Below are positions 28,566-45,830 of a DNA stretch of 64,000 bases, in pieces. Both the position numbers and the translations under genes were made by a program. The notes under the pieces are model-generated. The model did no database searches, was not told the DNA's origin, and saw nothing but the letters and a program-made list of their open reading frames with translations. The DNA is taken from the IMG/VR virus record IMGVR_UViG_3300025133_000023. One strand, 5' to 3'. This DNA comes from a virus. Within the stretch, counting starts at the first letter, position 1, and every line of letters starts with the position of its first letter.

Positions 28566-29046
28566 TTTATATACTTCCGAAGGTTACTTTACGCAGACTC
28601 GACGAGTCCTTGATCTACTATCAAAAGGAAACACCGAAGAGCTCGCGAACTTTGAGCTAAGCCCTCTCAATCACCCCTATTGGTCTCCATACTTCCTTCC
28701 ATTTGAGGATGAAGTCTATGCCATCAATTTTGCCAAGACTCACACCTATATTATCCTCGAAGAGACTGGTGAATTTACTTGGGCTCAAGCGCTTTGGGAA
28801 CATGAACTCCCCACACGCAAAAAAGCTCCCCGTACCCACGAGGAGCCTTGCTTTTTGTGCATGCCAGGGCTTACGGTCTGGTCGAACCGATGGGTTGCTT
28901 CAGACCCCGATCAGTGTGCCTGGTACATAGGGATAAAGATTATGTCCGATGATAACTTTCTAGAATCGCGAGGCGTGCCTCTGTACCCGTTAGGCGTACA
29001 GAATGCTCTGCTACCTCCGTCTGCCGTAGCAAACCTAGTTGGGTAA
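28558..29046 (+). CDS. Hypothetical protein, last gene of the + strand arm
   Basis: GGAG SD; the 3' end overlaps a convergent - strand gene. Confidence 0.55.
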   Translation: MIDLYTSEGYFTQTRRVLDLLSKGNTEELANFELSPLNHPYWSPYFLPFEDEVYAINFAKTHTYIILEETGEFTWAQALWEHELPTRKKAPRTHEEPCFLCMPGLTVWSNRWVASDPDQCAWYIGIKIMSDDNFLESRGVPLYPLGVQNALLPPSAVANLVG

Positions 29047-29155
29047 CTTGGTCTACTGTTACGAACTTCGTGATAGCAGTGAGAATGCTATTTACAGCAG
29101 ACTCTAGAGCCCTGACTCGTCTTTCTAAGTCTAGGTATTCATTAGTGGTTGGCAT
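28940..29155 (-). CDS. Small coiled-coil protein, last gene of the - strand arm
   Basis: LDLERRVRALESAVNSIL heptads; starts immediately after the upstream stop. Confidence 0.65.
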   Translation of the reverse strand: MPTTNEYLDLERRVRALESAVNSILTAITKFVTVDQVTQLGLLRQTEVAEHSVRLTGTEARLAILESYHRT

Positions 29156-31340: not shown

Positions 31341-32315
31341 TTATACCAGATCAGTCTCTATCATCATCTTTACTAAGTCGTCAACGGTGTGCGTTGCCTC
31401 CCAGCCTAGTACCTGGTTAATTTTAGTTGGATTGCCTAACAGATTGGGGACTTCAGATGGCCTCATGAAACGTGGATCGTAATCCACATACTTTTCCCAG
31501 GCCGAATCGTCCAATCCAGCGGATCGAATTGCACTGCGTAGGAAGTCTCGAACTGAGATGGACTTGCCTGTAGCAACAATGAACTCGTCTGGCTCATCTG
31601 CATCCAGCATAAGATCCATAGCCTGCACATAATCTCCAGCGAAACCCCAATCTCTTCGGGCGTCAATGTTTCCAAGGCTGATTGTTTCCGCCTTTCCCTG
31701 TGCGATTGCAGAAATTCCAAGAGTAATTTTTCTTGTAACGAAGTCGCTCCCACGACGAGGTGACTCATGATTGAAGAGAATCCCGTTGCAGGCAAAAAGA
31801 CCATACGCTTCGCGGTAGTTTTTAACAGCCCAGTAGGCTGCAAGCTTAGCAACACCATAGGGACTCCTAGGGTAAAGAGGACTGTCTTCAGTGTAGCCAG
31901 TAGAGGGACAGTCAAGTCCACCAAATAGCTCACTAGTAGATGCCTGGTAGAACCTAGTCTCGGGAGAGTTCCTCCGAATGGAATCCAAGACTACAATGAC
32001 CGCTCTAGCATCTGTATCAAAAGTCTCTAAGGGTTCCTTAAAGGATTGCCCAACGTGAGATTGAGCAGCTAGATTGAAGTACTTCTCAGGCTTATACTCT
32101 TGAACTATCCAGTTGATAAATGAGGCGTCCTTTATGTCTCCAAAGCAGGAGATGAAGGATGGGTGATCAGCAAAAAGGGTTGTATTTTCCCCCAGCCCAA
32201 CCCGGGTACTTTTTCTCCTGTCGATCCCGACGACCGTATAGCCCTTGGCTAGAAGATGCTCGGCCAAATACGACCCGTCCTGACCCGAAATGCCTGTTAT
32301 CACAGCTGTTTTCAT
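31341..32315 (-). CDS. gmd: GDP-mannose 4,6-dehydratase; an in-frame upstream start at 32474 adds 53 aa
   Basis: TGISGQDGSYLAE, NLAAQSHV, YQASTSELFG, SPYGVAK, LFNHESPRRG and RDWG; AAGGAG upstream of ATG 32315. Confidence 0.95.
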   Translation of the reverse strand: MKTAVITGISGQDGSYLAEHLLAKGYTVVGIDRRKSTRVGLGENTTLFADHPSFISCFGDIKDASFINWIVQEYKPEKYFNLAAQSHVGQSFKEPLETFDTDARAVIVVLDSIRRNSPETRFYQASTSELFGGLDCPSTGYTEDSPLYPRSPYGVAKLAAYWAVKNYREAYGLFACNGILFNHESPRRGSDFVTRKITLGISAIAQGKAETISLGNIDARRDWGFAGDYVQAMDLMLDADEPDEFIVATGKSISVRDFLRSAIRSAGLDDSAWEKYVDYDPRFMRPSEVPNLLGNPTKINQVLGWEATHTVDDLVKMMIETDLV

Positions 32316-32473
32316 TTTAATCTCCTTAGCAAGTAACCAAGCCTTAAACTCCTCTAAGCCAGAGCATCGCTTTCGAGAGAAATGAACACTAAGCCCCTGG
32401 AAAGTAGTGAAATGCTTGCCACAACAATCAAAACCATCCTGTCCACTGACTCCAGTTACTATTGCTGTCTTCA

Positions 32474-33583
32474 TTACTGACTCCTGTACGCTTCTACGGC
32501 TGCAATGACTTCATCAACCTGTTCATTGGTCATTGTTGGGAACACAGGCAGACTAAGGAGACGATCACAAAGATCTCGGGCCACCCTGAATCCTCCCTTA
32601 TCCTTTGTAAGATAGGGAGTAGAGTCAGTGATAATCGATGGATAGTGTAAACCACAAGCAACACCAGCCTCACCTAGCCAAGCCATAAGGGCCTCTCTAT
32701 CCTCCTTACTATCACACTTATACTCATACAAGTGAAAGACAGGAACAGCTATTGGATCAATGAATGGAGCCCTATTCCCAAAGGCTTTATCATAACGCGC
32801 AGCAACCTCTCGTCGCCTAGCATTCCATGAATCCAAAGACTTAAGTGCATGTCTGAGCTGAGCAGCATGAATAGAGTCCAAGCGATGGTTATGTCCAATA
32901 ATTACATGATCATATTTTGAAGCGCTTCCTTGGTTAATGATTTGTCGAGCAACTTCAGCCAAACCAGGGCTTTTGGTAATAATTGCTCCACCCTGTCCAC
33001 AGGTTCCTAAATTCTTAGCCGGGTAAAAGGACGTACAAGCTATATCACTTAACTCACCCACCCCATAGCCCCCAGACCGGGCTCCAATCGCCTGTGCAGC
33101 ATCTTCAATAAGAGCGACGCCGTAGTCCTTGGCTAGCTCTGCAAAGAGCTTCATATCAACCATCTGTCCATATAGATGAACGGGCATGATGGCCTTAATA
33201 CTCTTCGCATCCTGTTTAGATAGTTCCTTGATACACCCATCAACACTCATTAGGTAGGTAGACGGATCTACATCCACAAACACAGGCGTAGCACCTGCTG
33301 CGGTAATAGCAAAGGCGCTTGCAATGAAAGTGTTAACGGGAACAAGAACTCTATCCCCAGGCCCAATCTCCAAGGCGCGTAGAGCAACCTCTAGAGCTGA
33401 TGTTCCACTACTACAACCAATAGCAAAATCTACACCCATGTATTCGGCAAACTCTTCTTCAAACTTATTCAAAAACGGACCACCAACAACCCACCACGAT
33501 CGAAGCACTTCTAGTACATCGTTTTCGATAGCTTGCTGAATGGGGAGATACTGACCCTTAAGGTCAACGAAGGGAACTGTCAT
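32474..33583 (-). CDS. DegT/DnrJ/EryC1/StrS PLP sugar aminotransferase (WbpE/GnnB/perosamine synthase-like)
   Basis: VPFVDLKGQY, SSGTSAL, PVHLYGQ, IEDAAQAIGA and SFYPAKNLG (PLP Lys). Confidence 0.95.
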   Translation of the reverse strand: MTVPFVDLKGQYLPIQQAIENDVLEVLRSWWVVGGPFLNKFEEEFAEYMGVDFAIGCSSGTSALEVALRALEIGPGDRVLVPVNTFIASAFAITAAGATPVFVDVDPSTYLMSVDGCIKELSKQDAKSIKAIMPVHLYGQMVDMKLFAELAKDYGVALIEDAAQAIGARSGGYGVGELSDIACTSFYPAKNLGTCGQGGAIITKSPGLAEVARQIINQGSASKYDHVIIGHNHRLDSIHAAQLRHALKSLDSWNARRREVAARYDKAFGNRAPFIDPIAVPVFHLYEYKCDSKEDREALMAWLGEAGVACGLHYPSIITDSTPYLTKDKGGFRVARDLCDRLLSLPVFPTMTNEQVDEVIAAVEAYRSQ

Positions 33584-33770
33584 TATAATAATTCCTTAAT
33601 ATGATACGAACCTTCTCGATAAGCTCTAAGTTAGCCCAAAGCTTACCTTTGGTTGCATCAATTGCTAATTGATTAAAAGGTCCTCTCAAGGGCAAGTTAT
33701 GTCTTAGATACTTGCAAGCCATATCGGCAAACTCAACCAGCAGAGCAATTTCTTCAGGAGTGAGTTCCAA
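33564..33770 (-). CDS. Hypothetical protein
   Basis: 68-aa ORF packed within the sugar operon. Confidence 0.55.
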   Translation of the reverse strand: MELTPEEIALLVEFADMACKYLRHNLPLRGPFNQLAIDATKGKLWANLELIEKVRIILRNYYNDSSLR

Positions 33771-33778
33771 AACTAATA

Positions 33779-34549
33779 CTACTTCTTATAGTCCCCAGTT
33801 CTTCCGGGGAGATTTCCGTAAAGGCCGAACTCATATCTAAAGTCCTCCGGCCAATACTCTCGATCAAGCATCCATGTTTGTGCATCGGTTGAATGTTTAA
33901 AGTTTCGAGGGATAGGTGCTAATTCCATACCAGGACCTGGTCTACATTTCTTGGGACCAAAGCCATGATGGTAATGAACTAAATAATCATCAACAACATG
34001 GGCAGGAATGGTTTCCCCATCTCCCATATCTGATGTTGGTAGGCAATGCCTATTAATTCCATCTGGAAATCTTACACCATTGTAGGCAGTCCTATCAAAT
34101 AATCTAAGCTGTGAATCTGGAAACCAAGTAGGAGCATAAGCCTTTCTTGAAAACAATGAATATCTAGGAAAACGATAAGCTGAAGATAACCCACTTAGGG
34201 CTAGGGTGGAAAGGTTTGCGCTATCACTAAGGCATTCGTCAGCACCTAGGAGAAAAACCCAATCAGTGGAAGACATATCTATAAGAAGATTTAATCGACC
34301 TGACTGATCCCAACTGTCATCATACATCCGGCGTACCTTTTGCGGCTTACTTATGTAGGTTACCCGAGAATCTTTCTCTGCAACTTCAGCTAGATATTTT
34401 TCTGTTCCATCTGTACTACCGCCATCCAAAACTATTACATGGTGACAATGCCTTGTAGCATTATGTAATGATGCCCTAATATAAAACATCTCATTCAACG
34501 TCAAAACTAGACCTGTAATTTTCATACTTGAGCCTCTAATATAGCCCAC
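33779..34549 (-). CDS. Glycosyltransferase family 2 (GT-A)
   Basis: VLTLNE, VLDGGSTDGT, DWVFLLGADE and WFPDSQLRLF. Confidence 0.85.
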   Translation of the reverse strand: MGYIRGSSMKITGLVLTLNEMFYIRASLHNATRHCHHVIVLDGGSTDGTEKYLAEVAEKDSRVTYISKPQKVRRMYDDSWDQSGRLNLLIDMSSTDWVFLLGADECLSDSANLSTLALSGLSSAYRFPRYSLFSRKAYAPTWFPDSQLRLFDRTAYNGVRFPDGINRHCLPTSDMGDGETIPAHVVDDYLVHYHHGFGPKKCRPGPGMELAPIPRNFKHSTDAQTWMLDREYWPEDFRYEFGLYGNLPGRTGDYKK

Positions 34550-35361
34550 TCTTTGGGATGAGGGTTAATAGGAAACCACAAATCTTGAAAATGATTAGGG
34601 TGTCGTCCGTTGTATCTTTTAAGATTAGGTAAGCTTTTCTTCATCTCGTAGTCGAACTCATTAAACTTTTCAGGAAGCTCTACTTCAAATTCTTTATCGT
34701 TCGTATACCAAGCCTTTCCTAGGATGCGTCTCATTCCCATAGCGCGAGCTGACCGTACCCATCCATAGTGCCAAAGTGGAATAGATAGGCTAAGCATTTC
34801 TTTACCCCCATAGTTATGAAGAGTAATCTCTTTTCCGTTAACCCTTCCAACTACATCACAAACAGGTCTACGGTTATCGTCTGTGCGGAAGTTCTTAACA
34901 GCAAAACCACTAGAACGATGACCTATTCGACAGTGACGCTTATAGAATGCAGGCCCCTGTGCAATATAGCGAGGCGTCCCATAAAAATGAGTAACCGGAA
35001 GGGAGGCAAATTGTGTTCCCCCTTTTCCCAACTGGTCTTTAAGGGTAGCCATGTGGTCTTCATGAATACCCTCGTCAGCATCCACAGCAAAAACCCAATC
35101 ACAGGAACTCATCTGGAAGGCTACATCCCAGGCCTTCTCTTGCCAGTGACGATTAAATTCAAATCCATATACCTTATAGCGAATGCGTCCTCGATACTTT
35201 GCTGCCAAATCTTCAACAATACCAACAGTATTATCTTGTGATAGGCCGACACTAATAGAAACCTCATCACAACCAACCAAGGCTTGCTCAATAGCAGCCT
35301 CCAGCCCGTAGTCCATAATTTCTACGTTCCGGGCTTTCATAATAGCTGTGATAGAAGTCAT
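34522..35361 (-). CDS. Glycosyltransferase family 2-like (GT-A)
   Basis: SQDNT, DWVFAVDADE (DxD) and LWHYGWV. Confidence 0.8.
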   Translation of the reverse strand: MTSITAIMKARNVEIMDYGLEAAIEQALVGCDEVSISVGLSQDNTVGIVEDLAAKYRGRIRYKVYGFEFNRHWQEKAWDVAFQMSSCDWVFAVDADEGIHEDHMATLKDQLGKGGTQFASLPVTHFYGTPRYIAQGPAFYKRHCRIGHRSSGFAVKNFRTDDNRRPVCDVVGRVNGKEITLHNYGGKEMLSLSIPLWHYGWVRSARAMGMRRILGKAWYTNDKEFEVELPEKFNEFDYEMKKSLPNLKRYNGRHPNHFQDLWFPINPHPKEWAILEAQV

Positions 35362-35363
35362 AA

Positions 35364-36287
35364 TTAGATAGCACTCACTACAGCATATCCATGCTCAAAA
35401 CTAATTCGGTTTACTTCCTCAGGATTAATCCCTGCAACTAGACTTAACCAAAAATCTAATTCGGCCCTGAGTGGCTCGGAGTGATCTTTTACTTCAAGAA
35501 CCTTAAGAATACCAGGCTTATTTTCACCAATAATTCGTTGATCCCAGAAGGCTAACTCCTTAGGCTTAGACATGTCATACTCTATGATACCATCAGTTCC
35601 TAGAATACTTATTTTTCTTACCTTTTCAGTATGAGCCCAACTGTAGTTAACAAGGGCATCAACCCCTGACGCCAGCCTATACAGAGAAGAGCCGGCCACC
35701 GAGATAGACTCATTGTCTAGCGATGTTCTTGACAAAAGAACAGGGTTATCTCCTGTAAGGTACTGGATAATACTAAGGTCATGAGGCAAGAGGTCTAGCT
35801 CTACACCACACTCTTGAAACTTACCCCAGTTAAGACGACTAATATTAATAGCCTTAACCTTTCCTACCTTTCCACTATCTATAAGCCTTTTAAGCTCAAG
35901 GATCTCAGGACTGAAAACGAAAATATGACCAACACAACAAGTAAGGTGACTAAAGGTTCGACTTAAAGAAAGCAACTGACTAGCATCACTATCAGACGCA
36001 GCAAGAGGCTTCTCTACAAAAATATGTTTACCCGCCATTAAGCAAAGCCTAGCGATAGCTAGGTGTGTGGACGGAGGGGTAACAATAGCTACAGCATTAA
36101 CCGTATTGTCACTAAGGATTGTTTCAATAGAAGCAACCTCCACCCCTGGATATTTGTCAGCCTGAGCTTGGGCTAGATCTGGGTCCAGATCGCATACATA
36201 CTTAAGGTCAGATATAGTGTTAAGGTTTCGAGTAATGTTGGGGCCCCAATAGCCACAACCAATAACAGCAGTCCCTAGGTTTTTCAT
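35364..36287 (-). CDS. Gfo/Idh/MocA NAD-dependent oxidoreductase (WbpB/GnnA-like)
   Basis: IGCGYWGPNITRN, HIFVEKPLA, VGHIFVFSP and DLLPHD. Confidence 0.92.
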   Translation of the reverse strand: MKNLGTAVIGCGYWGPNITRNLNTISDLKYVCDLDPDLAQAQADKYPGVEVASIETILSDNTVNAVAIVTPPSTHLAIARLCLMAGKHIFVEKPLAASDSDASQLLSLSRTFSHLTCCVGHIFVFSPEILELKRLIDSGKVGKVKAINISRLNWGKFQECGVELDLLPHDLSIIQYLTGDNPVLLSRTSLDNESISVAGSSLYRLASGVDALVNYSWAHTEKVRKISILGTDGIIEYDMSKPKELAFWDQRIIGENKPGILKVLEVKDHSEPLRAELDFWLSLVAGINPEEVNRISFEHGYAVVSAI

Positions 36288-37252
36288 AGACTGGTAGCTC
36301 CTTTAATTCTGTATTTACGCAAAAAGATCTTCATCATAGCTGAGATGACATGAGGCTTTACGTGACGATTATCATCTGTAAAGGGATCTTTGATTGCTTG
36401 GGTAATAATGTCATACGATTCAAAATATGTTGTGTTGTTATAGCTTTGACAAAAATATTCAGCAGCGGTGCGTAACGTACACTTACTGAGCCCATTAGCC
36501 ACCCAGGTATTAACGTTACGGCGGAAAGTTGCATGTAGAGGAACAGGACTTACACTCAAAATAATCTGAGCTGAAGGGTTGTGCTCTTTAAGGAGCTCAC
36601 GACACCGATTGAGATCACCCAAAACTTCATCAACCGTTTGAATATGGAACTCATGTATTTTTGGATCATAAAGCCCTATGCTAACTGGAGGCATAAGACT
36701 AAAAGTAGAGTGATCTCTCGAATCCCTCCAAGTTTCCGTTAGTCCTAGGGTAAGAATAACTACCTTAGCTGTTGTAAGGGCCTTTCTAGAGGCACTAACA
36801 TGTTTTTGGAAGTCAATCTCTTTAGACTCCCAGTCATAGTATGAGTACTCTCTAAAAGGATCAATAGCCCTTTTATCAGGATGTCTCCACCAACGCTGAA
36901 CTGGATTAAAATTACCCAAAGAGTACTCAAAGATTTGTCTCATTGAAGCACTGTTGTAAACCCTATTCCATCCACAACTAGCATGGAGACAATTGTGAGG
37001 TTCAGTTATCAAATAGTTGTATTTGGCTTTGCGCAAGAAGGTTGCAATATTTCTAGCGAAACAAGACCCCATACTTGTAATTGGGGTTCGCTGATCAATT
37101 AGATGGCATCTTCCATACTTAGCAAACTGATGAATATCTATTTTCCCTGGATTAATAAGATCAGTCAACTGAAAACGACCACCAGAAAAAGGGACAAGCC
37201 TATTACTCAGCTCTGTCGTCAACCCACTCTCCTCGCTTAATTGTAGTTTCAT
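36284..37252 (-). CDS. GSCFA-domain protein (SGNH-like)
   Basis: MGSCFARNI, LTLGLTETW, LSVSPVPL, SKCTLR and DNRHV. Confidence 0.88.
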   Translation of the reverse strand: MKLQLSEESGLTTELSNRLVPFSGGRFQLTDLINPGKIDIHQFAKYGRCHLIDQRTPITSMGSCFARNIATFLRKAKYNYLITEPHNCLHASCGWNRVYNSASMRQIFEYSLGNFNPVQRWWRHPDKRAIDPFREYSYYDWESKEIDFQKHVSASRKALTTAKVVILTLGLTETWRDSRDHSTFSLMPPVSIGLYDPKIHEFHIQTVDEVLGDLNRCRELLKEHNPSAQIILSVSPVPLHATFRRNVNTWVANGLSKCTLRTAAEYFCQSYNNTTYFESYDIITQAIKDPFTDDNRHVKPHVISAMMKIFLRKYRIKGATSL

Positions 37253-37955
37253 TTGATTGTCGAATTAGCTCAGTTAGCATTGTTGCTGTTAGCTGGTCTA
37301 GCAGTGGAAGGTTCTGCATAATGCAGTGTCCGCCAATAACACCAGGGAACTTATTCTGAATATCATAATCGCTAGCTTGAAGCTTCCAAATCTGACTAAC
37401 AAAGTCATAGTCCGCCTGTGCCGTGTCGCATAGTTGTTGAGCCATTTGAGTCCAGGCAATGAGGTACCCAACCAAAGTTGTTTGGAGGATCTTAGCTAGC
37501 TCTGCGTTCTCTGGTTTGTTACCCATCCATCGTGGCTTAAACCCAGCAGCACTTAGCTTAGCCATAAGGTCAGGCTTAAAGTGGGTTCCACTAATGAACT
37601 TAGGATACTTGAGCATGTCCGAAGTCATCTGATCATTAGCATGCTTTCCTAGTACTGGGGAATGGTATACGAAAGACTGGGTCTGTTCCTGAATACGACG
37701 CGTAGTTCCAACGGGAACAGTAGCGTGAATAACTGTATAGAGGGGGGTATAGGTTCGAATATATTCTGAAACAATATTCTCAAATCCCTTTAACTCTCCA
37801 GGGATACAGATATGCATGCAAAACACATTCTCATCCCTTTTGGGCGGATGAAAGCCCTGAGCTGGGTCGATAGCTTTTACGTCATCACAAGCAGCAGCTA
37901 GCAAATGATAAATAGGATTACCAATCTCGCCTAAACCAATAACAAGATGTTTCAT
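37203..37955 (-). CDS. UDP-sugar 6-dehydrogenase family (WbpA/WecC-like), lacking the C-terminal domain
   Basis: VIGLGEIG, TVPVGTT, AELAKILQTT and PGVIGGHCI; only 250 aa. Confidence 0.8.
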   Translation of the reverse strand: MKHLVIGLGEIGNPIYHLLAAACDDVKAIDPAQGFHPPKRDENVFCMHICIPGELKGFENIVSEYIRTYTPLYTVIHATVPVGTTRRIQEQTQSFVYHSPVLGKHANDQMTSDMLKYPKFISGTHFKPDLMAKLSAAGFKPRWMGNKPENAELAKILQTTLVGYLIAWTQMAQQLCDTAQADYDFVSQIWKLQASDYDIQNKFPGVIGGHCIMQNLPLLDQLTATMLTELIRQSNETTIKRGEWVDDRAE

Positions 37956-38590
37956 TAATAGCTCCTTCTATTGGGACGCCGACATTTCTCCCACTCTGCT
38001 TCTAGTCCAGAAATGAAACTATCATCTCCACTAGGGAGATTCCACTTCTTAAAGCTATAAGTGTTCTGGCCTAGCGGCTTGCCGGGAATATATTTAGCAA
38101 GGGGTGGAATGTCTTTAACTATTGTAGAGTTCATAGCAGTCATACTATAAGCGCCCACCGTAGTAAACTGATGAGTTATAACCCCAAGCCCAACATTGGC
38201 TGCTCGCATGATGCGAGTCCAGCCTCCTAAGCATACGTTCGTACTTAAGATAGCGTATGGCTCTAAGTAACAATCGTGACTAATATGGCAACGAGCCATG
38301 ACATAGCAATCATCCCCAATAAAGGTAAGGTCTTTCATTGGAGAGTTCACAGTCGTAAACTCCCTAATGACAATACGATCCCCAATAACAATCTTACCCG
38401 GAGATCTGTATACAGGATTAAGCTCATACTTATCACTAGAGTGCTCAGCCCATTGACCTATACTTACGTGTGGACCAATGTGACAATTTTCCCCAATGAA
38501 CGTATTGCCTTCAATAACACAATAAGGACCGATATAGGTACTTCTAGGAACACTAATATGAGGAGCAACCAAAGCAGTAGAATGAATCAT
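37955..38590 (-). CDS. Hexapeptide-repeat acyl/acetyltransferase, LpxA-like
   Basis: IHSTALV, hexapeptide repeats, IREFTTVN, CHISHDC and THQFTTVG. Confidence 0.85.
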   Translation of the reverse strand: MIHSTALVAPHISVPRSTYIGPYCVIEGNTFIGENCHIGPHVSIGQWAEHSSDKYELNPVYRSPGKIVIGDRIVIREFTTVNSPMKDLTFIGDDCYVMARCHISHDCYLEPYAILSTNVCLGGWTRIMRAANVGLGVITHQFTTVGAYSMTAMNSTIVKDIPPLAKYIPGKPLGQNTYSFKKWNLPSGDDSFISGLEAEWEKCRRPNRRSY

Positions 38591-38599
38591 AGTTTACCT

Positions 38600-40498
38600 T
38601 TAGGCTGTCAAATCTACTTCTTTTGTATCCCACCAGCGAACCATTTCAGTTACTAGGCCAAGCTGTCCTACAAATGAACCAGTCTTCTTTAAGTCTACAG
38701 TGAGGCGACCCTCTACAACTTCACCAACTTTAAGCTCCTTAGGCAATTCGTATAACCCATAGCTTGGATCAGACGCTTCCTTTCCGTTCTTACCAACAGC
38801 TCTGCTGAACCGAACATGAAGCTTATTGTCGGAAGCGTAAACTTTTCCACTATCGTTTGTAACTTTGAAATAGATATAGCGCTTAGAGCTTCTCTTGGTA
38901 ATCTTAATGATTTCGATTTTCATATAATTCTCTCCTTTAAGGATAGGCTTAGTCTCTTCTAAAATCACCAACCTATCTGGGACAGTGATATTCAGAAGGC
39001 TTTTAGCCGCTTGGTTATAGGTATTATTTTCCCGAATCCATTTCGCAGCAGCAAGCCCTACTTTATGGGCCTTGTCTTGCTCACGGTAAACCTGACGCAT
39101 CTTCTGGGCCAGAGCGGGGACATCGATCTCTGCAAATTGTCCGAAAACTTCAGACCCATTATTCTCTGCCTGAAGCCAGCCAGGAATTCTAGCATCCTGA
39201 AGACCCTTAGGATTAACCCAATAGCTTACACCCCTGATACAAATGTCTTCTAAAGCACTCCACTTACATAAAATAACTGGAAGTCCAGTAGACATTGCTT
39301 CACGGGGAGGAAGGCCGAAACCCTCCCCAGAAGAAGCAAAGACCAAACAGTCGACATTCTGCAACAAGCTTAGCATCTTAGGCTGGGATAGCCTCCCATC
39401 TATGATCTTTTCATTAGGCCTTAATCGAGGAACGTTTCCCCCAAAAGAAGTCTTAATGATAAGCTCCACATTTTTGTCTTTAGGAAACGCTGTCCGAAAA
39501 GCTTGAAGGGTAAGATCGGCGTTTTTTCTAGGACAATCCCATCGAGTATTGCTATAGAGTAAAAAGCGAAATGGTCTATCCTTAGTGAGCGATCTCTTAA
39601 GTAGTGGCCAACGTTCAGGATCAACTCCAAGGGGTGAAACCTTAATAGGTATTCTTACTCCAGAGTCTTCAAAGACAGTCTTATTAAACTCAGCAGGGAC
39701 AACAACGTAATCAAAATGAGAGTTGATTTTCTTAGGCCAATTAGAGGGAAGCTGTGTTGTTTCAAACATTGTCATCAACCCTAGCCTTAACCCTTTGGCT
39801 CTAGCAATCCTGCTCTTGGGTGCTTTATTCCAACCATTGGGAGTGTAATAAAGAAGATACTCTCTTATCGTCATGGACTGCTGCCTCTGAGACTCTTTTA
39901 CTAAACGTAATCCATCTTTACTAGCTAGTCTTATAGAGTCTGGAAAGGACTCGAAGGCATCCCAATGCATTTGTTTATCTAGACGAGCCATAGCAACAGC
40001 TAACGCTTCAGCGGAAGACCCATACCCATCACAAGGATTAAACACAGAGGTAAAGCACAGACTAATTTCCTTTTCTCGGTTCATTGGGGAGTCGGAAACC
40101 GCTTCAAGCGCCGACTCTTTGATTTTGATCTTGAATTTGTCACATAGAAACGCCAACGCCGTCTCATACCATAGTGTTCTATGAGTATCTTTGAACACAT
40201 TGCTCACCATCACTGTTGTTGAGAATCTAGAGGGTACAAACCTATTGGTAGGAATATAGGTAATGCTAAAGTTTTGCCTAATGGACTTCAGCATAAAAGG
40301 CTGGACAACAAAGACCCAAGCCATGCTTCTGTTTCCAAAAGCGACAATACACTCAACAGCTCGAGTTATAGCCTCAATCTGTTGAGCATCACTTCCGACA
40401 AAATACAGAGCAATCTTTTTCACTAGAGGGTCATCCTTTGATAGAGAGATGTGGCAATTATAGAAATACTTGGCTTCCCTAGATTCTGTAAACACCAC
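38600..40498 (-). CDS. Glycosyltransferase family 4 (GT-B) with a C-terminal Ig-like domain
   Basis: MTMFET, PLGVDP, RKNAD, FASSGEGFGLPPREAMSTGLPVI (ExxxxxxxE); C-terminal beta domain ending LVTEMVRWW. Confidence 0.88.
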   Translation of the reverse strand: MVFTESREAKYFYNCHISLSKDDPLVKKIALYFVGSDAQQIEAITRAVECIVAFGNRSMAWVFVVQPFMLKSIRQNFSITYIPTNRFVPSRFSTTVMVSNVFKDTHRTLWYETALAFLCDKFKIKIKESALEAVSDSPMNREKEISLCFTSVFNPCDGYGSSAEALAVAMARLDKQMHWDAFESFPDSIRLASKDGLRLVKESQRQQSMTIREYLLYYTPNGWNKAPKSRIARAKGLRLGLMTMFETTQLPSNWPKKINSHFDYVVVPAEFNKTVFEDSGVRIPIKVSPLGVDPERWPLLKRSLTKDRPFRFLLYSNTRWDCPRKNADLTLQAFRTAFPKDKNVELIIKTSFGGNVPRLRPNEKIIDGRLSQPKMLSLLQNVDCLVFASSGEGFGLPPREAMSTGLPVILCKWSALEDICIRGVSYWVNPKGLQDARIPGWLQAENNGSEVFGQFAEIDVPALAQKMRQVYREQDKAHKVGLAAAKWIRENNTYNQAAKSLLNITVPDRLVILEETKPILKGENYMKIEIIKITKRSSKRYIYFKVTNDSGKVYASDNKLHVRFSRAVGKNGKEASDPSYGLYELPKELKVGEVVEGRLTVDLKKTGSFVGQLGLVTEMVRWWDTKEVDLTA

Positions 40499-42219
40499 TT
40501 GATAGTCTGCTTAACTAGCTCGTTTGAATATACTTTATCGTTTTGAAGCCATTCTATTGTTTCTTCTAGGTCACTAGGGTCTACCTTAACTAGAAGACTG
40601 TCTGGAATCAAAAGCTTTGCATCACTATGAACAATACACAGTGCCCCATGGACCGCAGCTTGAGCGATTAATGTTCCATCAGTGTTCGGATCAAGGTCCA
40701 CAACAATGCCAGACATTCCCAGTAGGTTATTAATTGATGTTTCAGATTCACTACGCCAACTGGTGACATCACTAACTGTCTTCCTATCTAGTCTAATCTG
40801 ATCTCTAAAGATGGGTAAGGAAACGATCTGTGTAGGCTTCCTAACTCCAGCATCCCAAATATATTCAGCTTCTTTTGGAGTAGAGCATATGATTACATCA
40901 TAGTATTTAGCTAAGCGGAGAGCAGCCAGCTTATCCACCGGTCCCGGCACAATAGCATAAACACAATTTATGATGCCCTTAGGGGGTAGCTTAGCTTTGG
41001 GTCCAATATTGTCTGTGGAGATAATATCGATAACAATATCCTTCTTATCTATGGCAATTGCGTTTTCAAGGATTGTGTAACCAGCTTCTGTCAGTCCACG
41101 TTTTAGCCCGCGCTTAATAGCTTCAGCCCTGGGGTCTTGTCCTAAGCTGTGAAGAATAAGCTTGTTCTCAGCAAAGGCACCTTCAGGCAGTTTGTACTCA
41201 AGCTTCTTGAGGACATACTCTTGAACCTTGGCAACTGGAAGATCATTCATGCAAGCATGATTATAGCTACATCTAGCATACCAACAATACTGACATCCTA
41301 GCTCTGCAGTGACTGCAATAGCTCCAGGGTAGTGATTGATACGGGCTGCTGGATCAGTGGGCCCAAAGATAGAAACAATATTCAGTCCAAGCGCGCCAGC
41401 CAAATGTAGCATGCCACTGTCAGGGCCAACAAAAAGATCAGACTCATTAATTAACGCCGCCGCAGGCCGGAAGCCAAACTTCTCAGCCGTAGTGTTTGGC
41501 TGTCCCCAGGAATCGGCCCGTCCATTAAAGTCATCAATGATAATTCTCACATCAGGTCGGAAGGCTGTTATCTGGTTAATCAGCTGGGTAGTTTTATCCA
41601 CAGGCCAAGAACGCCTATGGTCGACTGAAGCTACAGAGAGGAAGATAAGCTTATAGCTATCTCTTTCTCCCCACTTTTGCTCTAGCCATTTCTGCGCCCA
41701 TTCTACCTCATCAACCTTGGGTTTGTAAATAGGAGAATACTGTCTTAGCTGAATTCCTACGTACTTGGCAAACAGGTCAATACGATTGATGGGAGGATTA
41801 GATGTCTTCTCATAGGAAGGACAAACACTAGTCACATCAGCAAAGTAATCATAAATCCCTGGATCAATTGTCCGGAAATCTACAATTGTATCAATGTCTG
41901 GATTGTTTTCTACCACCCTAAAAAGGGTAGGGTCTGTAGCATAAGTAATAATACAATTCGGATACTCTTGACGGATAGCCCTAACGGTTGGGGTTGTCAT
42001 AAGAACATCACCCAATCCACCCAGCTTACGTTGAATACAAATTTGAAGAGCTGCTTCCTTATTTTCAAAGGAAAACTTTGAGTGGGCTCTGATGAGTTCA
42101 TGCTGAGCACGAAACTTAGTCCGAGTAAAGCCACCCGGAACTCTCGACACAGGAGCTCGACTCTTAGGCTTAAGAGTTCGTGATCCCCGCGAAGAATTCT
42201 TGCGGAAAATATTGGGCAT
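40423..42219 (-). CDS. Glycosyltransferase family 9 (heptosyltransferase-like) fused to a degenerate second domain
   Basis: GGLGDVLMTTP, RSWP, FVGPDSGMLHLAGAL, IFGPTDP and CWYARC...CM. Confidence 0.9.
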   Translation of the reverse strand: MPNIFRKNSSRGSRTLKPKSRAPVSRVPGGFTRTKFRAQHELIRAHSKFSFENKEAALQICIQRKLGGLGDVLMTTPTVRAIRQEYPNCIITYATDPTLFRVVENNPDIDTIVDFRTIDPGIYDYFADVTSVCPSYEKTSNPPINRIDLFAKYVGIQLRQYSPIYKPKVDEVEWAQKWLEQKWGERDSYKLIFLSVASVDHRRSWPVDKTTQLINQITAFRPDVRIIIDDFNGRADSWGQPNTTAEKFGFRPAAALINESDLFVGPDSGMLHLAGALGLNIVSIFGPTDPAARINHYPGAIAVTAELGCQYCWYARCSYNHACMNDLPVAKVQEYVLKKLEYKLPEGAFAENKLILHSLGQDPRAEAIKRGLKRGLTEAGYTILENAIAIDKKDIVIDIISTDNIGPKAKLPPKGIINCVYAIVPGPVDKLAALRLAKYYDVIICSTPKEAEYIWDAGVRKPTQIVSLPIFRDQIRLDRKTVSDVTSWRSESETSINNLLGMSGIVVDLDPNTDGTLIAQAAVHGALCIVHSDAKLLIPDSLLVKVDPSDLEETIEWLQNDKVYSNELVKQTIKWCLQNLGKPSISIIATSLYQRMTL

Positions 42220-42245
42220 TCATTGCCTCCGATTTTACTTAAAGA

Positions 42246-43772
42246 TTACCAGGTCCAATTAAGGCCTAGCCCAAGGAAGAGAGCATCGTCTGTGTAGGTG
42301 TCTGCAGCGTCTGTAGCTGCGAGGCGACTTATCTTAATATTAATAAGACCAAGGCCACTGACTCCATTCTCAAGCGTTTGAGTAGCGTATTCAAAGTTCT
42401 GCACATCGTCAGCATTGGCGATGGTGAAGACATTGCTTTCTGCCAACCCCCAAGTGCCAGCAAAGGTTTCAGCATCCCCTACCACATCCACATCAGTACC
42501 AGCTAAACCATAGTGTAGATAGAACGCAGCGCCACTGCCACCACCCGGAACGGAGGTTCCCATTACATAAATGGTCGCCTGAACGGTAGCAGGCAAAGTC
42601 CCATCCTCTCGACGGGGGACTTCGATTACCAGAGATGCATACTCATCATCCATACCATCATAGGCAAGAACAATAGCTGCAAAAGCAGCAGCTCCTGCCC
42701 CTTTGATAAGGCTAAGAGTCTCTGGAGTAGTAGCCACATGGGCATTAAACTCACGAGGATGCAACCACGAATGAGTTCTAGTCTGCTTAAGCCCAGAAGC
42801 ACTCTTAGTAAGAGTATCTCCGTCAAGCTCAAGCTGAAACTCGGTTCCCACAAGCTCAAGCCCATCTCCATCAGCAGTATAGGTAGTACCTGAAGCAACC
42901 CTGGGCTCCCATTCAGAACTGACGTTGTTATAGGTGAGAACAAAATCAGCAGTGGGGGCTGCCCCACTAATAGCAACACCCTGAAGAGCACGAGCATTCC
43001 ACCAGTTACCATTATTAAAGGCCGTAATTCCATTAGCACTTTTACTAAGAACAGTGTCACCTGTGGTATCAATCTCCAAAGAAAACTGAGTACCAGTAAG
43101 CTCAATGCCCAGGCCATCGGCTGTGTAGGAAGCAGAGGCTGTCATGGCTGCATCCAATGCACTGATAGCTGCCTCAAGGCTAGTGTTCTGGGTGATGTGG
43201 ACAGTAGAGCTATAGTCAGGAGTACTATCGCCTACCCCGTCACTACCGATGAAGGCTCGAATAGCATCAAGCTGAGCATCCATTGAGCCTGGGCCAGACG
43301 TTAGGGTAGCATCAAATGCCTTTAACCCAATGTAGGCCTTGGTATAGTCTGAGATGGGGTCATTATTAATCTGGAAAAATGCCTGATTAATGGCAGTGAT
43401 AGAGGCATCTAGCTGACCAGCCAGCTTTAAGATCGTTTCCTTGATGGTGAGTTTTCTACCACCGTCCCAGAAGAGCACACTGCTCTTATTGGTTGCAGTG
43501 TTGTCAGTCCAAACCTGGTCACCGCTAAGACCATTTTTAATAGCATCAAGAGCATCCCCAATTGGAGTATCTGTTGCATTGTCTGCATCAAGAATACCAA
43601 GTGGTAGCTGAGCAATCAAAGGCCTTAAGGTATTGTTATAGACCGACTGCAGCTCTTGTATATCACGGGAAAGCTCATTAAAGGTTGAGTTAATACGCTT
43701 TACGCTAAACCCACCACCTTCGGGGGTTTTACGTGACCTTGTGCGTGAAACAATAATTGGGACAGTAGACAT
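42246..43772 (-). CDS. Tail fibre / fibre-like structural protein
   Basis: N-terminal coiled coil, A/G/T-rich shaft with an internal repeat and a beta-rich C-terminal head; lies downstream of the tail genes. Confidence 0.6.
   Translation of the reverse strand: MSTVPIIVSRTRSRKTPEGGGFSVKRINSTFNELSRDIQELQSVYNNTLRPLIAQLPLGILDADNATDTPIGDALDAIKNGLSGDQVWTDNTATNKSSVLFWDGGRKLTIKETILKLAGQLDASITAINQAFFQINNDPISDYTKAYIGLKAFDATLTSGPGSMDAQLDAIRAFIGSDGVGDSTPDYSSTVHITQNTSLEAAISALDAAMTASASYTADGLGIELTGTQFSLEIDTTGDTVLSKSANGITAFNNGNWWNARALQGVAISGAAPTADFVLTYNNVSSEWEPRVASGTTYTADGDGLELVGTEFQLELDGDTLTKSASGLKQTRTHSWLHPREFNAHVATTPETLSLIKGAGAAAFAAIVLAYDGMDDEYASLVIEVPRREDGTLPATVQATIYVMGTSVPGGGSGAAFYLHYGLAGTDVDVVGDAETFAGTWGLAESNVFTIANADDVQNFEYATQTLENGVSGLGLINIKISRLAATDAADTYTDDALFLGLGLNWTW
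42788..43127 (-). repeat. Two protein-level repeats in the fibre gene
   Basis: YTADGLGIELTGTQFSLEID..GDTVLSKSANGI and YTADGDGLELVGTEFQLELDGDTLTKSASGL; boundaries approximate. Confidence 0.8.
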
Positions 43773-43775
43773 AGA

Positions 43776-45830
43776 TTAACCTAGCTTGATTGTGTAAGAG
43801 TCGATGAATGGCGACACAGAAGGGTCTGAAGTGCTTAGGATAGCCCTTAAGGTAATGTTAGTAAAAGTTCTTGTGGGGAGTTTGTACTCTACCCTGAAAC
43901 GTTCACTGAAGTGATCACCAAAACTCTGTTGAGTCTTAAATATAAATGCAATATTGCCAGAAGCATCTACTCTTCGAGTATACACTCCGAGTTCTCCAGT
44001 GTCAGAGAGGCTATCGAACTCCTGCTGAGAGACAAAGACTATCTTCCTTTCTGCCCAGAACACCCCTCCAGTATAAATCTTCTCTCCGGTAAAGCCCGTA
44101 GGATATGGATAGCCTTCTACAATATACTTATGGTTATAGGGATAAAGGGAATCGCTTGCTTCTAGAAGGACTTCTGTGGTTAATGGAGTTGTCGTATCGA
44201 GTAGCTTCCAGTTCTCTGCATCTGTTTGGAATAGATAGTCCCCCTTGCTTAGGAGGATAGCCCCTGTTCGCTCTACTCCATCAATCTTTGCTGAAGTGGA
44301 GCCTAGGTTAATCTCATATCCATTAGGATCATCTACTCTAAGGATGGTTTGATAAACATTCGTCTCTACATCCAAAGACCAACCAGAGGATATTCCCCTA
44401 ACGATCTCATCACGATTTCCTAGGTTACGATATACCACATAGGTAGTTTCATTAATGTCTCCTACAGAAGCCAAAGGAACAAAGGAGTTCAGCGCAACAT
44501 CTGATATTCCATTCAGAGTAATGCCGTGAGCCGCTGTTGAGTCCAGAGCTTCAGCGTCCTTGGTTGCATCGAAAACACTAGTAGACCCTACATTGTTAAC
44601 AGGGACAGAGTCTGTAAAATCAATTACCTGTGGGTGAGAAGGAGCACCGTCACCCAAGGATGAAATCGGAATAAAGGTAACGCCATCTGGGCTTACCCAG
44701 TAGTAGATATCAGTTCCCTCAGGCTTAAAGTCACAAGTATGAAGGGCAACCTTTGAGAAGGTTTTAACTACACCATCGTTGTCTTCTACGCTAAGGGCAT
44801 TGGACTCAAGAAGAGTTCCAAGGGCTACATCAAACTTGGGGCGATAGAAGCTAACATTCTTACACCCAAATTCATACACAAAGTTATTATCGATGTCTAC
44901 GTCATCATAGCCTGACTTGGAGATAATGAACTTAAAGAACCGAGCCTGAATCTCGGGGAACATCCATACCCCTGGACTGCTTACAAGGCTAATGCTTGGC
45001 TGACCTGGGACTAGGACAAAGTCAACCCCATTCTGACTATACATAAGACTTACTACAAAGGCACTCGTACCAGTAGAGCCAAAGGGAACGAAGGTTGCCT
45101 TGCTTACTGCCTTACTCTCTCCCATATCTACAAGTAGACTGTGGGTAATAACTTGAGCAGTTGAAGTTCTAACCACAGAGAGCCACTTAGAGTATTCATC
45201 ATCGATAGCATGAACTACTCCCATTCCTGCTGGGGTCTCCTGTAGGACAAGGCTGTTTGCAGAGAGAAGTTGAGCGCTTGCTATCCATGCATCGTCTGGA
45301 AGAATCCTTGCCGCTCCATTAGGAATCCACTCTTCCCTCATGGCAGCAATGCCTGCATTCGTATCGATTCTTGCAGTCGTTAGGGTCTGATTGATTTGCT
45401 CCATGTTGACGAAGTCGTCAGAAACATAAGCAAAGTATCCAAGGGTATCTCTCTTGAGAAGAAGAAGGTTTTCAATTCGGTCTTCCAGGCTAATCAAACT
45501 TCGCCTTACTGACTCATAATAGGCAGCCCATCGTCTCTCTTGCTTAATGGTAGCTACACTCAGGTCTTTGATCGTGTCATACATTGCTGTGATGTCACGG
45601 TGCTGGCTTGTAAGGGTAGTGTTCCACTTGGAAGCCGAGGCGGTTTCATAATGGACAATATCAAAACTTTCTAAGGCGATAAGGGGCCTATCGCCCAACA
45701 GTGGATTGCTAGCTTCCAGCTCCACCACCTGCTCTTCCAGTTCATCCATATTGGGAACTGTTCCCAGCTTCAACTCCTGTAGGAGGAAGTCGGTAAAGAG
45801 AACGTTATGATATCTGCCCTTTAAACTCAT
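43776..45830 (-). CDS. Virion structural protein with a discoidin (F5/8-type)-like domain, paralog 3
   Basis: 684 aa; LLVDMGESKAVSK...YSQNGVDF...ARFFKFII. Confidence 0.6.
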   Translation of the reverse strand: MSLKGRYHNVLFTDFLLQELKLGTVPNMDELEEQVVELEASNPLLGDRPLIALESFDIVHYETASASKWNTTLTSQHRDITAMYDTIKDLSVATIKQERRWAAYYESVRRSLISLEDRIENLLLLKRDTLGYFAYVSDDFVNMEQINQTLTTARIDTNAGIAAMREEWIPNGAARILPDDAWIASAQLLSANSLVLQETPAGMGVVHAIDDEYSKWLSVVRTSTAQVITHSLLVDMGESKAVSKATFVPFGSTGTSAFVVSLMYSQNGVDFVLVPGQPSISLVSSPGVWMFPEIQARFFKFIISKSGYDDVDIDNNFVYEFGCKNVSFYRPKFDVALGTLLESNALSVEDNDGVVKTFSKVALHTCDFKPEGTDIYYWVSPDGVTFIPISSLGDGAPSHPQVIDFTDSVPVNNVGSTSVFDATKDAEALDSTAAHGITLNGISDVALNSFVPLASVGDINETTYVVYRNLGNRDEIVRGISSGWSLDVETNVYQTILRVDDPNGYEINLGSTSAKIDGVERTGAILLSKGDYLFQTDAENWKLLDTTTPLTTEVLLEASDSLYPYNHKYIVEGYPYPTGFTGEKIYTGGVFWAERKIVFVSQQEFDSLSDTGELGVYTRRVDASGNIAFIFKTQQSFGDHFSERFRVEYKLPTRTFTNITLRAILSTSDPSVSPFIDSYTIKLG

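Follow-up and report, generated by a model that had tools for sequence, protein, structure and literature searches.

Glycosylation of the virion by phage-encoded enzymes has been documented in the mycobacteriophages Che8, Corndog and Myrna (Freeman et al., 2023, as reported in PMC12363180 and PMC12619734). As described in those reports, the glycosyltransferases are soluble and phage-encoded, virion proteins are proposed as acceptors, and the trait is accessory, varying from cluster to cluster. All of this is paralleled in the locus described here, an island of about eleven genes for the making and attachment of unusual sugars located directly after the last tail-fibre gene of an uncultured marine phage of 190 kb. 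Glycosyltransferase genes likewise lie in or beside the structural modules of some actinophages: gp29 of Arthrobacter phage Kitkat, a homologue of the GT4 enzyme of the island, is flanked by the tail terminator and tail chaperone genes. Unlike the mycobacteriophage systems, the marine locus is anchored by a GT9 enzyme and carries its own rare-sugar synthesis, and its GT4 protein gave no tblastn match at 1e-5 in Mycobacterium phage records.

Giant viruses carry clade-specific glycosylation clusters which combine rare-sugar synthesis with several glycosyltransferases and vary in content between relatives. The LPS-like gene sets of cyanomyoviruses show the same combination, again with content differing between related viruses (PMC12801897, PMC5332604). 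Both groups represent a different realm or lineage and employ different enzymes, whereas here a single conserved anchor glycosyltransferase occupies a fixed post-fibre site. Within the window, i.e., the whole 64,000-nucleotide stretch of DNA that was analysed, that site is preceded by the following structural genes:

60862..62091, minus strand: Baseplate J-like protein (PF04865, 5.9e-14), marking the upstream baseplate module
45827..49018, minus strand: 1063-aa virion structural protein with a discoidin-like stretch (phrog_21108, 4.6e-20)
43776..45830, minus strand: 684-aa baseplate or receptor-binding protein (phrog_19683, 1.5e-22)
42246..43772, minus strand: 508-aa candidate distal fibre or receptor-binding protein; the structural genes end here and the island follows

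This is a real baseplate and fibre module, in which five of the large proteins between Baseplate_J and the sugar cluster match PHROG 'virion structural protein'. The 1063-aa protein, whose discoidin-like match (PF00754) is weak, is kept upstream of GT9 in relatives, with homologues in 19 loci. The 684-aa protein, modelled (AF2, pLDDT 80.6) as a coiled coil followed by CBM32-like sandwiches, recovered CBM32 modules in Foldseek as well as baseplate chains of phage phi812 at low TM (about 0.1), and served as the conserved tail anchor for the clade (49 related loci). The 508-aa protein matched no Pfam or PHROG family, and Atlas gave weak leads to Mtd and tail fibre; a conserved N-terminal region of ~200 aa and a variable C-terminus (n = 6 homologues) make it a candidate receptor-binding protein by architecture. 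A search of the structural proteins for Ser/Thr-rich acceptor-like tracts found none standing out.

Placement of the cluster genes by Pfam and NCBIfam bore out the ten families named in the initial annotation, all on the minus strand downstream of the baseplate and fibre module:

40423..42219, minus strand: 598-aa bimodular glycosyltransferase GT9 (PF01075, 2.4e-11), the conserved first gene of the cluster
38600..40423, minus strand: 607-aa GT4 glycosyltransferase, from GTG at 40423 (PF00534, PF13692)
37955..38590, minus strand: 211-aa LpxA-like left-handed beta-helix (LbH) acyltransferase (NF003657, 2.3e-38)
37203..37955, minus strand: 250-aa short NDP-sugar dehydrogenase-like protein (PF00984, 2.7e-6; TIGR03026, 7e-10, weak)
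36284..37252, minus strand: GSCFA-family protein (PF08885, 4.5e-42)
35364..36287, minus strand: Gfo/Idh/MocA oxidoreductase (PF01408, 9e-19; NF040723, UDP-GlcNAc 3-dehydrogenase, 8e-33, below cut-off)
34522..35361, minus strand: 279-aa GT2 glycosyltransferase (PF00535, 7.6e-7), found by own-genome scan
33779..34549, minus strand: 256-aa GT2 glycosyltransferase (PF00535, 3.2e-9; phrog_13126)
33564..33770, minus strand: 68-aa ORF from the ORF list, filling the sole long spacer of the cluster
32474..33583, minus strand: DegT-family PLP aminotransferase (PF01041, 2.9e-102)
31341..32474, minus strand: GDP-mannose 4,6-dehydratase, Gmd (PF16363, 5.9e-113; TIGR01472, 3e-110)
30144..31301, minus strand: tubulin/TubZ-like GTPase (PF00091, 4.9e-10; PF22453, 2.3e-6), further island cargo
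28958..29155, minus strand: small conserved ORF at the end of the tail arm, the far island border

From 58007 down to 29156, gaps between listed ORFs are at most 39 nt except for one stretch of 195 nt (33584-33778) holding the 68-aa ORF, which matched no family; the tight packing and overlaps first described are thus confirmed, and a spacing of 2-26 nt throughout is not. The cluster sits close-packed at the end of the structural arm, its genes joined by coupled start/stop overlaps, and a simple terminator scan of its strand recovered intragenic hairpins only and no intergenic terminator-like site, in agreement with the initial annotation. In all, an accessory island of ~13 kb holds the sugar cluster, the tubulin gene and a HesB-like gene, and its border ORF was found by tblastn from the 75-aa ORFs of L118 and L136 (2e-6 and 6e-6). 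Host contamination or misassembly is ruled out by independent assemblies of relatives (L004, L007/L008), which share the gene order.

The GT9 protein, whose ATG follows GGAGG by 7 nt, opens with a basic, disordered N-terminal region of ~58 aa, continues as a GT-B module of GT9 type (~57-345) and ends in a second, compact GT-B module (~347-598) that is GT4-like and has a degenerate EX7E, so that the four glycosyltransferases originally counted comprise five GT modules. In its AF2 model (pLDDT 88.9), the GT9 module gives VIA Z scores of 26.3 (3tov), 24.4 (WaaF), 23.3 (TibC) and 22.6 (WaaC), and the second module 18.0 (BshA). The gene for TibC/Aah adjoins that of its fibrous adhesin substrate. 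Like TibC/Aah, a cytoplasmic, soluble GT9 enzyme acting on beta-helical adhesins (PDB 4rap, 4rb4), the phage protein has the GT9 GT-B fold, with 283 residues aligned; it differs in reaching only 20.7 of the 200 bits required by the NCBIfam TibC/Aah model, in bearing the disordered tail instead of an N-terminal beta-barrel, and in possessing a second GT-B module. WaaC, WaaF and WaaQ belong to the same Pfam family, provide the best HMM and fold matches, and share the N-terminal G-G-x-G-D and C-terminal D-S-G-x-x-H motifs. In NCBIfam, the LPS heptosyltransferases I, III and II (1e-13 to 1e-9) score nearer than TibC/Aah (1.7e-4). Unlike the Waa enzymes, the phage protein falls under every equivalog cut-off (50.8 vs. 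185 bits), is bimodular and basically extended, and has its gene behind that of a tail fibre, not within a waa locus. It matches no PHROG family, and certain residues are invariant across 62 homologues. Its homologues sit on phage contigs that are 100-230 kb long, and some carry inteins; a search of 185,579 prokaryote species genomes with its signature motifs recovered 3 loci. GT9 belongs to a phage-specific subfamily, a lineage essentially absent from cellular genomes.

The GT4 ORF, first listed as 38600-40498, was assigned a GTG start at 40423 by alignment to L004, L007, L013 and L016, overlapping the GT9 stop by 1 nt. Its product (phrog_2170, 1.4e-36) has an intact EX7E and an extra beta-rich C-terminal domain of ~110 aa. 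In L013 and L016, GT4 is fused to GT9, from which it follows that the two act together. The closest cultured-phage homologues of GT4 belong to actinobacteriophages (145 records), the hosts of which are not known to possess LPS.

Three chemistries lie side by side in the island as in the WbpA/B/E/D (UDP-GlcNAc3NAcA) and GnnA/GnnB/LpxA (UDP-GlcNAc3N-acyl) routes, namely those of a Gfo/Idh/MocA 3-dehydrogenase, a C-3 DegT aminotransferase and an LbH N-acyltransferase; in contrast to those routes, none of these phage enzymes reaches an equivalog cut-off. The Gfo/Idh/MocA protein (top PDB match 7bvj) is a candidate nucleotide-sugar 3-dehydrogenase. By its PDB matches (QdtB, 1.7e-75; DesV-like, 5.5e-72; WbpE, 6e-68; perosamine synthase, 2.5e-51), the DegT protein appears closest to C-3 sugar aminotransferases. 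The acyltransferase matches LpxA structures to 1e-27, and the HxxH of its 'HISHDC' aligns with E. coli 'HIAHDC'; it scores 131.8 bits against a cut-off of 226 on NF003657 and is without the LpxA C-terminal helical domain. The 'WbpA-like' dehydrogenase keeps two motifs (GLGEIG, i.e., GxGxxG, and GGHC) and consists of a Rossmann fold and central domain only, the C-terminal nucleotide-sugar domain being missing; its TIGR03026 match spans positions 108-295 of 413, and no PDB sequence match was found. The GSCFA protein is likely a sugar acyl esterase or transferase, and the translated Gmd has an N-terminal 14-mer duplicated on either side of a 39-aa insert.

Comparison with related phages supported the adjacency of tail and glycosyltransferase genes. 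GT9 lies 1.2-8.9 kb downstream in 30 of 41 tail-anchored loci (on the same strand in 29 of these); among 47 GT9-anchored loci, 23 have it as the immediate neighbour behind the distal fibre gene. This placement is kept across fibre lengths from 423 to 2918 aa. By census, the genes behind it vary and include methyl-, sulfo-, amino- and acyl-transferases and dehydratases; relatives' clusters abound in O-methyl-, sulfo- and N-acyl-transferases for sugars, enzymes typical of surface glycans and not of the DNA modifications so far described. Among 313 co-directional downstream ORFs of 44 loci, we found no flippase, polymerase, ligase or Gtr-type enzyme and no convincing multi-pass membrane protein (two were marginal, one of them a DegT). 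Cluster order is common to L007/L008 at 22-54% identity, a sign of long purifying selection on the gene set. In one monophyletic sub-clade of 16 loci, the cluster is inverted, follows ThyX and primase-helicase genes, is co-directional with the primase-helicase arm and converges on the fibre genes; additionally, one complete relative is without GT9. These departures mark the cluster as an accessory island and show that late co-transcription does not apply to all relatives. Late co-expression, as originally proposed, was a deduction from gene order and is not a fixed trait. Of the initial interpretation, adjacency, freedom from contamination and the disfavouring of DNA as target were borne out, and late co-expression as stated was not supported.

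Tentatively, we favour the reading that the sugar block is a phage-owned glycosylation island whose acceptors are phage or virion proteins. Enzyme families, intact motifs, solubility, conserved position and a phage-specific GT9 lineage were observed; that relatives keep a phage-only enzyme at this spot suggests that the phage decorates its own particle with sugars, and a GT9 anchor that stays constant while the genes behind it change accords with a conserved acceptor encoded by the phage. The GT9-GT4 fusions, the want of flippase, polymerase, ligase, Gtr-type and convincing multi-pass membrane proteins, the actinobacteriophage homologues of GT4 and the close packing behind the tail genes count on the same side. 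We infer donors, order of action, acceptor and timing as follows. GT9, fused to its GT4-like module, probably adds the first sugar to an acceptor common to the clade, most likely a structural protein of the tail-fibre/baseplate region or some other protein on the virion surface. GT4 and the two GT2 enzymes would then extend the chain with island-made donors: a UDP-2-acetamido-3-acylamido-2,3-dideoxyhexose, produced by the putative 3-dehydrogenase, C-3 aminotransferase and LpxA-like acyltransferase, and a GDP-6-deoxyhexose from Gmd, with GSCFA adding or trimming an acyl group. Against a virion acceptor run the want of a Ser/Thr tract, the HMM proximity of GT9 to LPS heptosyltransferases, the sub-clade in which the cluster stands opposite to the tail genes, and the nature of the site, which behaves as a cargo slot because the island also holds tubulin and HesB-like genes and a complete relative is without GT9; the post-fibre position can equally be regarded as a cargo site and as a fibre-linked one. 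In temperate phages, O-antigen-modifying genes also lie beside tailspike genes, which likewise counts against a virion acceptor.

Remodelling of the host envelope is a serious rival because the fold of GT9 resembles those of LPS heptosyltransferases and of the protein heptosyltransferase TibC to an equal degree. It is possible, if doubtful, that at the cytoplasmic face GT9 glycosylates either the host's inner core (lipid A-Kdo/heptose) or some other acceptor linked to lipid; an equally guarded view is taken of the accompanying proposal that the other glycosyltransferases build a phage-specified outer glycan exported by host MsbA/Lpt. Such remodelling would mask receptors against superinfection and stop the loss of progeny on cell debris, and since the tail proteins carry CBM32-like lectin modules, the receptor is probably a glycan and hence open to masking. 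The inner core is the characterised acceptor of most GT9 enzymes, the Gfo, DegT and LpxA-like proteins together resemble the GnnA/GnnB/LpxA route by which 2,3-diamino lipid A sugars are made, the strongly basic GT9 tail could bind anionic membrane, the inverted sub-clade would express the cluster earlier, and this is the usual reading of such marine-virus genes in the field (PMC5332604, PMC12801897). Set against these points are the sub-threshold GT9 and LpxA-like scores, the missing C-terminal domain of the LpxA-like protein, a GT9 lineage that is no recently captured waa gene, GT4 homologues in phages of hosts not known to possess LPS, the distal location on the structural arm, and a window in which no lysogeny context was seen.

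We consider it unlikely that the target is a host protein (pilin, flagellin, S-layer) or a soluble or lipid-bound glycoconjugate, or that the island is partly decaying cargo without a coherent product. The truncated dehydrogenase, the EX7E lost in the second GT9-protein module, the odd duplicated start of a Gmd with no partner reductase within the window, and the dispensability of the island all point in this direction; the catalytic motifs kept in GT9, GT4, both GT2 enzymes, DegT, LbH and Gmd, the invariant GT9 residues and the order shared with L007/L008 argue otherwise.

Attachment of the glycan to a hydroxylated base of phage DNA, blocking host nucleases, is highly improbable: GT-B enzymes placing heptose or Kdo on 5hmC (10.1101/2023.12.21.572611) and phage DNA with polyarabinosylated 5-hydroxycytosine (PMC13326640) are known, and the polybasic GT9 tail and the ThyX and primase-helicase neighbours in the inverted sub-clade could be so read, but the one ThyA homologue of the genome is a canonical thymidylate synthase that passes the equivalog cut-offs for that enzyme (402 vs. 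327 bits), no Tet/JBP dioxygenase or C5-methyltransferase was found genome-wide, and the transferase repertoire of relatives points to other products. As regards the wider affinities of the phage, the distant relatives of its primase are Bacteroidota phages.

The sugar genes of this virus (an IMG/VR record of 189,645 bp, complete by CheckV) follow a tail and baseplate module, and all ten gene families that the initial annotation had listed behind that module were recovered in place by Pfam and NCBIfam searches. The arrangement is real and turns out to be more general than the sequence alone could show. The minus-strand features to which it is referred below are as follows.

60862-62091, minus strand: Baseplate_J, in the tail/baseplate module upstream of the cluster
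43776-45830, minus strand: 684-aa tail protein; its model (pLDDT 80.6) has a long coiled coil and, after it, beta-sandwich modules
42246-43772, minus strand: 508-aa "fibre" without a family match
33584-33778, minus strand: long spacer holding a 68-aa ORF of the ORF list
28958-29155, minus strand: ~75-aa ORF at the end of the tail arm, also found in relatives lacking GT9

Five of the large proteins after Baseplate_J match PHROG "virion structural protein" families, and the beta-sandwiches of the 684-aa protein resemble CBM32 lectin domains and, with a low TM (~0.1), baseplate chains of phage phi812. The N-terminal ~200 residues of the fibre are conserved in five homologues and the C-terminal part is divergent, which is how receptor-binding fibres are usually built; an Atlas feature search additionally linked the fibre, weakly (score 0.85), to Mtd-like (major tropism determinant) proteins. 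Between 58007 and 29156, gaps between listed ORFs on the minus strand are at most 39 nt with one exception, the 195-nt spacer, which the original description of tight packing with gaps of 2-26 nt had missed. The start of GT4 has likewise been corrected, to a GTG at 40423 that has one base in common with the GT9 stop codon. Every terminator-like hairpin on the cluster strand lies inside a gene, and a scan for sigma-70 promoters gave fewer sites than shuffled sequence did; scans of this kind are uninformative where a phage brings its own RNA polymerase. The 12.4-kb block had no megablast match among 50,697 phage records. Host contamination or misassembly of the block is ruled out, because its synteny recurs in independent assemblies.

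Pattern scans of IMG/VR that took GT9 or the fibre as single proteins returned no match, and relatives were instead obtained by alignment-based scans: 80 loci fetched via GT9, together with four earlier loci, were compared with the window proteins, and layout classes were drawn from the 47 loci with GT9 identity of at least 31%. The window layout is found in 23 of these: on a single strand come tail proteins of ~1000 and then ~700 aa, between one and six fibre-like genes that vary, GT9, usually a GT4, and finally variable sugar genes. Late co-transcription with the tail genes, initially suggested for this phage, is not universal: in 16 of the 47 loci the cluster is co-directional with the primase-helicase (replication) arm and, where the flank is long enough, convergent on the fibre genes (eight further loci are unclassed). 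In a GT9-domain tree, the 16 inverted loci form one clade nested within the window layout (SH-aLRT 99 in a quick tree, the careful search being unfinished), and one inversion therefore suffices. Two ~190-aa ORFs upstream of GT9 in this sub-clade gave weak HTH matches only.

Independent anchoring on the 684-aa tail protein supported the conservation of adjacency between tail and glycosyltransferase genes. In 41 loci the sequence extends at least 6 kb beyond the anchor; 30 of them have GT9 1.2-8.9 kb downstream of it, co-directional in 29. About eight tail-anchored loci are without GT9, the fibre gene being followed by only ~111-aa and ~75-aa ORFs before the convergent replication arm, and one complete relative (locus L133, record G003; 161,781 bp with terminal repeats) carries the same tail genes and no GT9 anywhere, providing a natural minus control for comparative work. 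As the conserved terminal ORF is present at 28958-29155, the region between the last fibre gene and the end of the arm can be defined as a ~13-kb accessory island that holds, besides the sugar genes, a tubulin/TubZ homologue, a HesB-like gene, and two small ORFs. A 162-aa plus-strand ORF (28558-29046) runs with its end into the terminal ORF, and at most one reading is likely to be real in the overlap. The tubulin/TubZ-like gene (30144-31301) follows the cluster, and in the related locus L002 the equivalent cluster has an actin-like "Volactin" gene close to its end (21776 onward); the site seems to take cytoskeletal genes of both kinds as cargo. When 148 non-redundant ORFs lying behind GT9 in relatives were sorted by Pfam family, the list was led by Methyltransf_24/TylF (10), Gmd and epimerases (9), and DegT (8), followed by sulfotransferases (7), GT4 (7), and hexapeptide transferases (6).

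The GT9 protein scores 43.9 bits against PF01075 (CAZy GT9; cut-off 22), and 45.9 bits in a scan of its own genome. Its confident AlphaFold model (pLDDT 88.9) has two GT-B modules, one of the GT9 type (residues ~57-345) and a compact one that is GT4-like (~347-598); the latter has a Z of 18.0 to BshA and an EX7E motif that is degenerate in this phage. Because this one protein holds two modules, the four glycosyltransferases originally counted, all of which are present, amount to five glycosyltransferase modules. The predicted GT9 fold superposes on solved GT9 enzymes, with Foldseek matches of 5e-13 to 1e-10 and VIA Z scores of 26.3 (3tov, 281 aa, rmsd 2.8), 24.4 (WaaF), 23.3 (TibC), and 22.6 (WaaC); with likeness to TibC equal to that to WaaC and WaaF, fold searches do not separate protein-acting from LPS-acting members. 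The protein lies below the equivalog cut-offs of LPS heptosyltransferases I, II, and III (TIGR02193, 50.8 against 185.3 bits; TIGR02195, 37.7 against 134.6; TIGR02201, 48.7 against 170.2) and of the TibC/Aah protein O-heptosyltransferases (TIGR04414, 20.7 against 200), and a PDB sequence profile built from 16 GT9 homologues did not reach TibC. Complex prediction of GT9 residues 1-350 with the fibre scored 0.00, which counts neither for nor against binding.

More than 200 GT9 homologues were found, nearly all on phage-sized metagenomic contigs and some split by inteins; GT9 has no PHROG family, and its two signature motifs match only three loci among 185,579 prokaryote species genomes. Residues 1-58 form a conserved, disordered, and strongly basic extension (net charge ~+11), with a short motif near its start that is kept across the clade; its partner may be membrane, nucleic acid, or a phage protein. 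Several homologues of GT9 (proteins P0014, P0021, P0069, and P0088) and of Gmd (L019:12776-15001, in a related locus) are split by inteins with LAGLIDADG_3, Intein_splicing, and Hint matches. GT9 and GT4 form one polypeptide of ~690 aa in the related loci L013 (9872-11950) and L016 (9863-11935), and the inverted sub-clade has a tandem double GT9 of ~655 aa. The GT4 of the window carries an extra beta-rich C-terminal domain of ~110 aa (38600-38930) that, by alignment, is shared only with its homologue in locus L004.

The remaining enzymes point to rare-sugar synthesis. DegT is closest to C-3 aminotransferases (QdtB, 1.7e-75; a DesV-like enzyme, 5.5e-72; WbpE, 6e-68), far ahead of perosamine synthase (2.5e-51), and the best model for the Gfo/Idh/MocA protein is UDP-GlcNAc 3-dehydrogenase, under its cut-off. 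The 211-aa hexapeptide protein reaches 131.8 bits against the LpxA equivalog (cut-off 226), and its alignment stops at about LpxA residue 203 of 262, with the catalytic His pair kept and the C-terminal domain absent; the full two-domain architecture of LpxA (acyl-ACP:UDP-GlcNAc O-acyltransferase) is therefore lacking. Together, these three proteins, each below its equivalog cut-off, suggest synthesis of a UDP-2-acetamido-3-acylamido-2,3-dideoxyhexose by a WbpB/E/D-like or GnnA/B-like route. The "WbpA-like" dehydrogenase (250 aa) retains Rossmann and GGHC motifs, but its C-terminal domain is absent: it matches only positions 108-295 of 413 of TIGR03026 (38 against 189.8 bits), has no PDB sequence match, and does not show all three domains (NAD-binding, central, and C-terminal UDP-binding) of a WbpA-type UDP-sugar 6-dehydrogenase. 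Gmd is full-length for its family (PF16363, 378 bits, positions 2-332 of 332), scores slightly below cut-off against TIGR01472 (368.6 against 415 bits), and would produce GDP-4-keto-6-deoxymannose; the window holds no partner reductase for it. At its N-terminus (32274-32474), a 14-residue peptide recurs 53 residues on, at the canonical start, around a 39-aa insert containing Cys and His. Since Gmd in relatives carries an intein (716-741 aa), a mobile element may have left this duplicated start behind as a scar. No sugar nucleotidyltransferase (PF00483) was found in the genome, and the host must therefore supply the starting nucleotide sugars.

As to what is glycosylated, the tools used here leave phage proteins versus host LPS undecided. 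Virion glycosylation is plausible and the leading hypothesis, its acceptor being putative, and we give phage or virion proteins a little under even chances of being the target. In its favor, the GT9 lineage is old, phage-only, and fixed directly after the fibre gene, and the genes behind it vary. Membrane and export components are not co-encoded: no protein of the window cluster has a transmembrane segment or two or more hydrophobic 19-mers, and of 313 ORFs examined in 44 related clusters only two are marginal in this respect; no integral-membrane glycosyltransferase, flippase, or polymerase accompanies the cluster, so that O-antigen modification of the Gtr or Wzx/Wzy type appears not to be encoded. 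The modelled GT9 fold is as near to the adhesin-modifying TibC as to WaaC or WaaF, and the nearest cultured-phage relatives of GT4 are actinophage enzymes, one of which sits inside a tail operon (tblastn with GT4 as the only query matched 145 actinophage records among 50,697 phage records, none named Mycobacterium, the phage group of the glycosyltransferases Che8 gp110 and Corndog gp38). Virion glycosylation is documented in that phage group (PMC12363180, PMC12619734); the present phage is uncultured and known from gene order and homology. Ser/Thr-rich tracts were looked for in all 174 ORFs that reach 100 aa, and no obvious mucin-like acceptor was found.

We tentatively propose that, in a large uncultured marine clade outside the actinobacteriophages, a phage-only, two-module GT9, long kept after the distal fibre, adds the priming sugar of a glycan that varies between lineages and is carried by fibres or other virion proteins of the phage itself. 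Virus-encoded rare-sugar synthesis would feed this glycan, as it likewise feeds virion glycosylation in giant viruses, and decoration would be by aminated, acylated, methylated, or sulfated sugars according to lineage. Virus-encoded glycosylation clusters are a known kind, of which the GT9-led cluster behind tail fibres is a variant; no description of it was found in the literature searched. If the glycan is virion-bound, phage sugar coats would not be confined to mycobacteriophages but would be widespread among large marine phages. This would bear on how hosts are recognized, on the stickiness of particles, on grazing and decay at sea, and on the reading of metagenomic "LPS auxiliary genes."

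Modification of the host envelope or LPS is the default reading of such virus genes in the field (PMC5332604), and we regard it as a serious but rather unlikely alternative to modification of phage proteins. Characterized GT9 acceptors are mostly in the LPS inner core, the HMM scores of the window GT9 lean to LPS, and in the inverted sub-clade expression of the cluster would go along with that of the replication arm. The lectin modules of the tail proteins, moreover, imply a glycan receptor, one that could be masked. Were LPS the acceptor, a phage-specific lineage of core glycosyltransferases would rewrite the cell surface in lytic infection; with either acceptor, the conserved GT9 provides a clean marker and a defined enzyme. 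Other targets are improbable.

DNA is a highly unlikely acceptor. Surface glycans are where methylated and sulfated sugars typically occur, and no base-hydroxylating or base-hydroxymethylating enzyme, as glycosylation of phage DNA via 5hmC, 5hmU, or 5hoC would require, is apparent. Known routes to a glycosylatable base use a ThyA-homologue variant or a C5-methyltransferase with TET/5mYOX (10.1101/2023.12.21.572611; PMC13326640), whereas here the only ThyA homologue is canonical, passing thymidylate-synthase equivalog cut-offs, and PF12851 (TET/JBP) and PF00145 (C5-methyltransferase) have no match in the 189,645-bp record, in agreement with the low rank that DNA glycosylation had initially been given. 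In locus L006 (G000:C1:140000-150000), a canonical ThyA gene lies together with genes for a nicotinate phosphoribosyltransferase-like protein, a NadR-like NMN adenylyltransferase/Nudix protein, and a peptide deformylase, in what looks like an NAD-salvage and nucleotide block.
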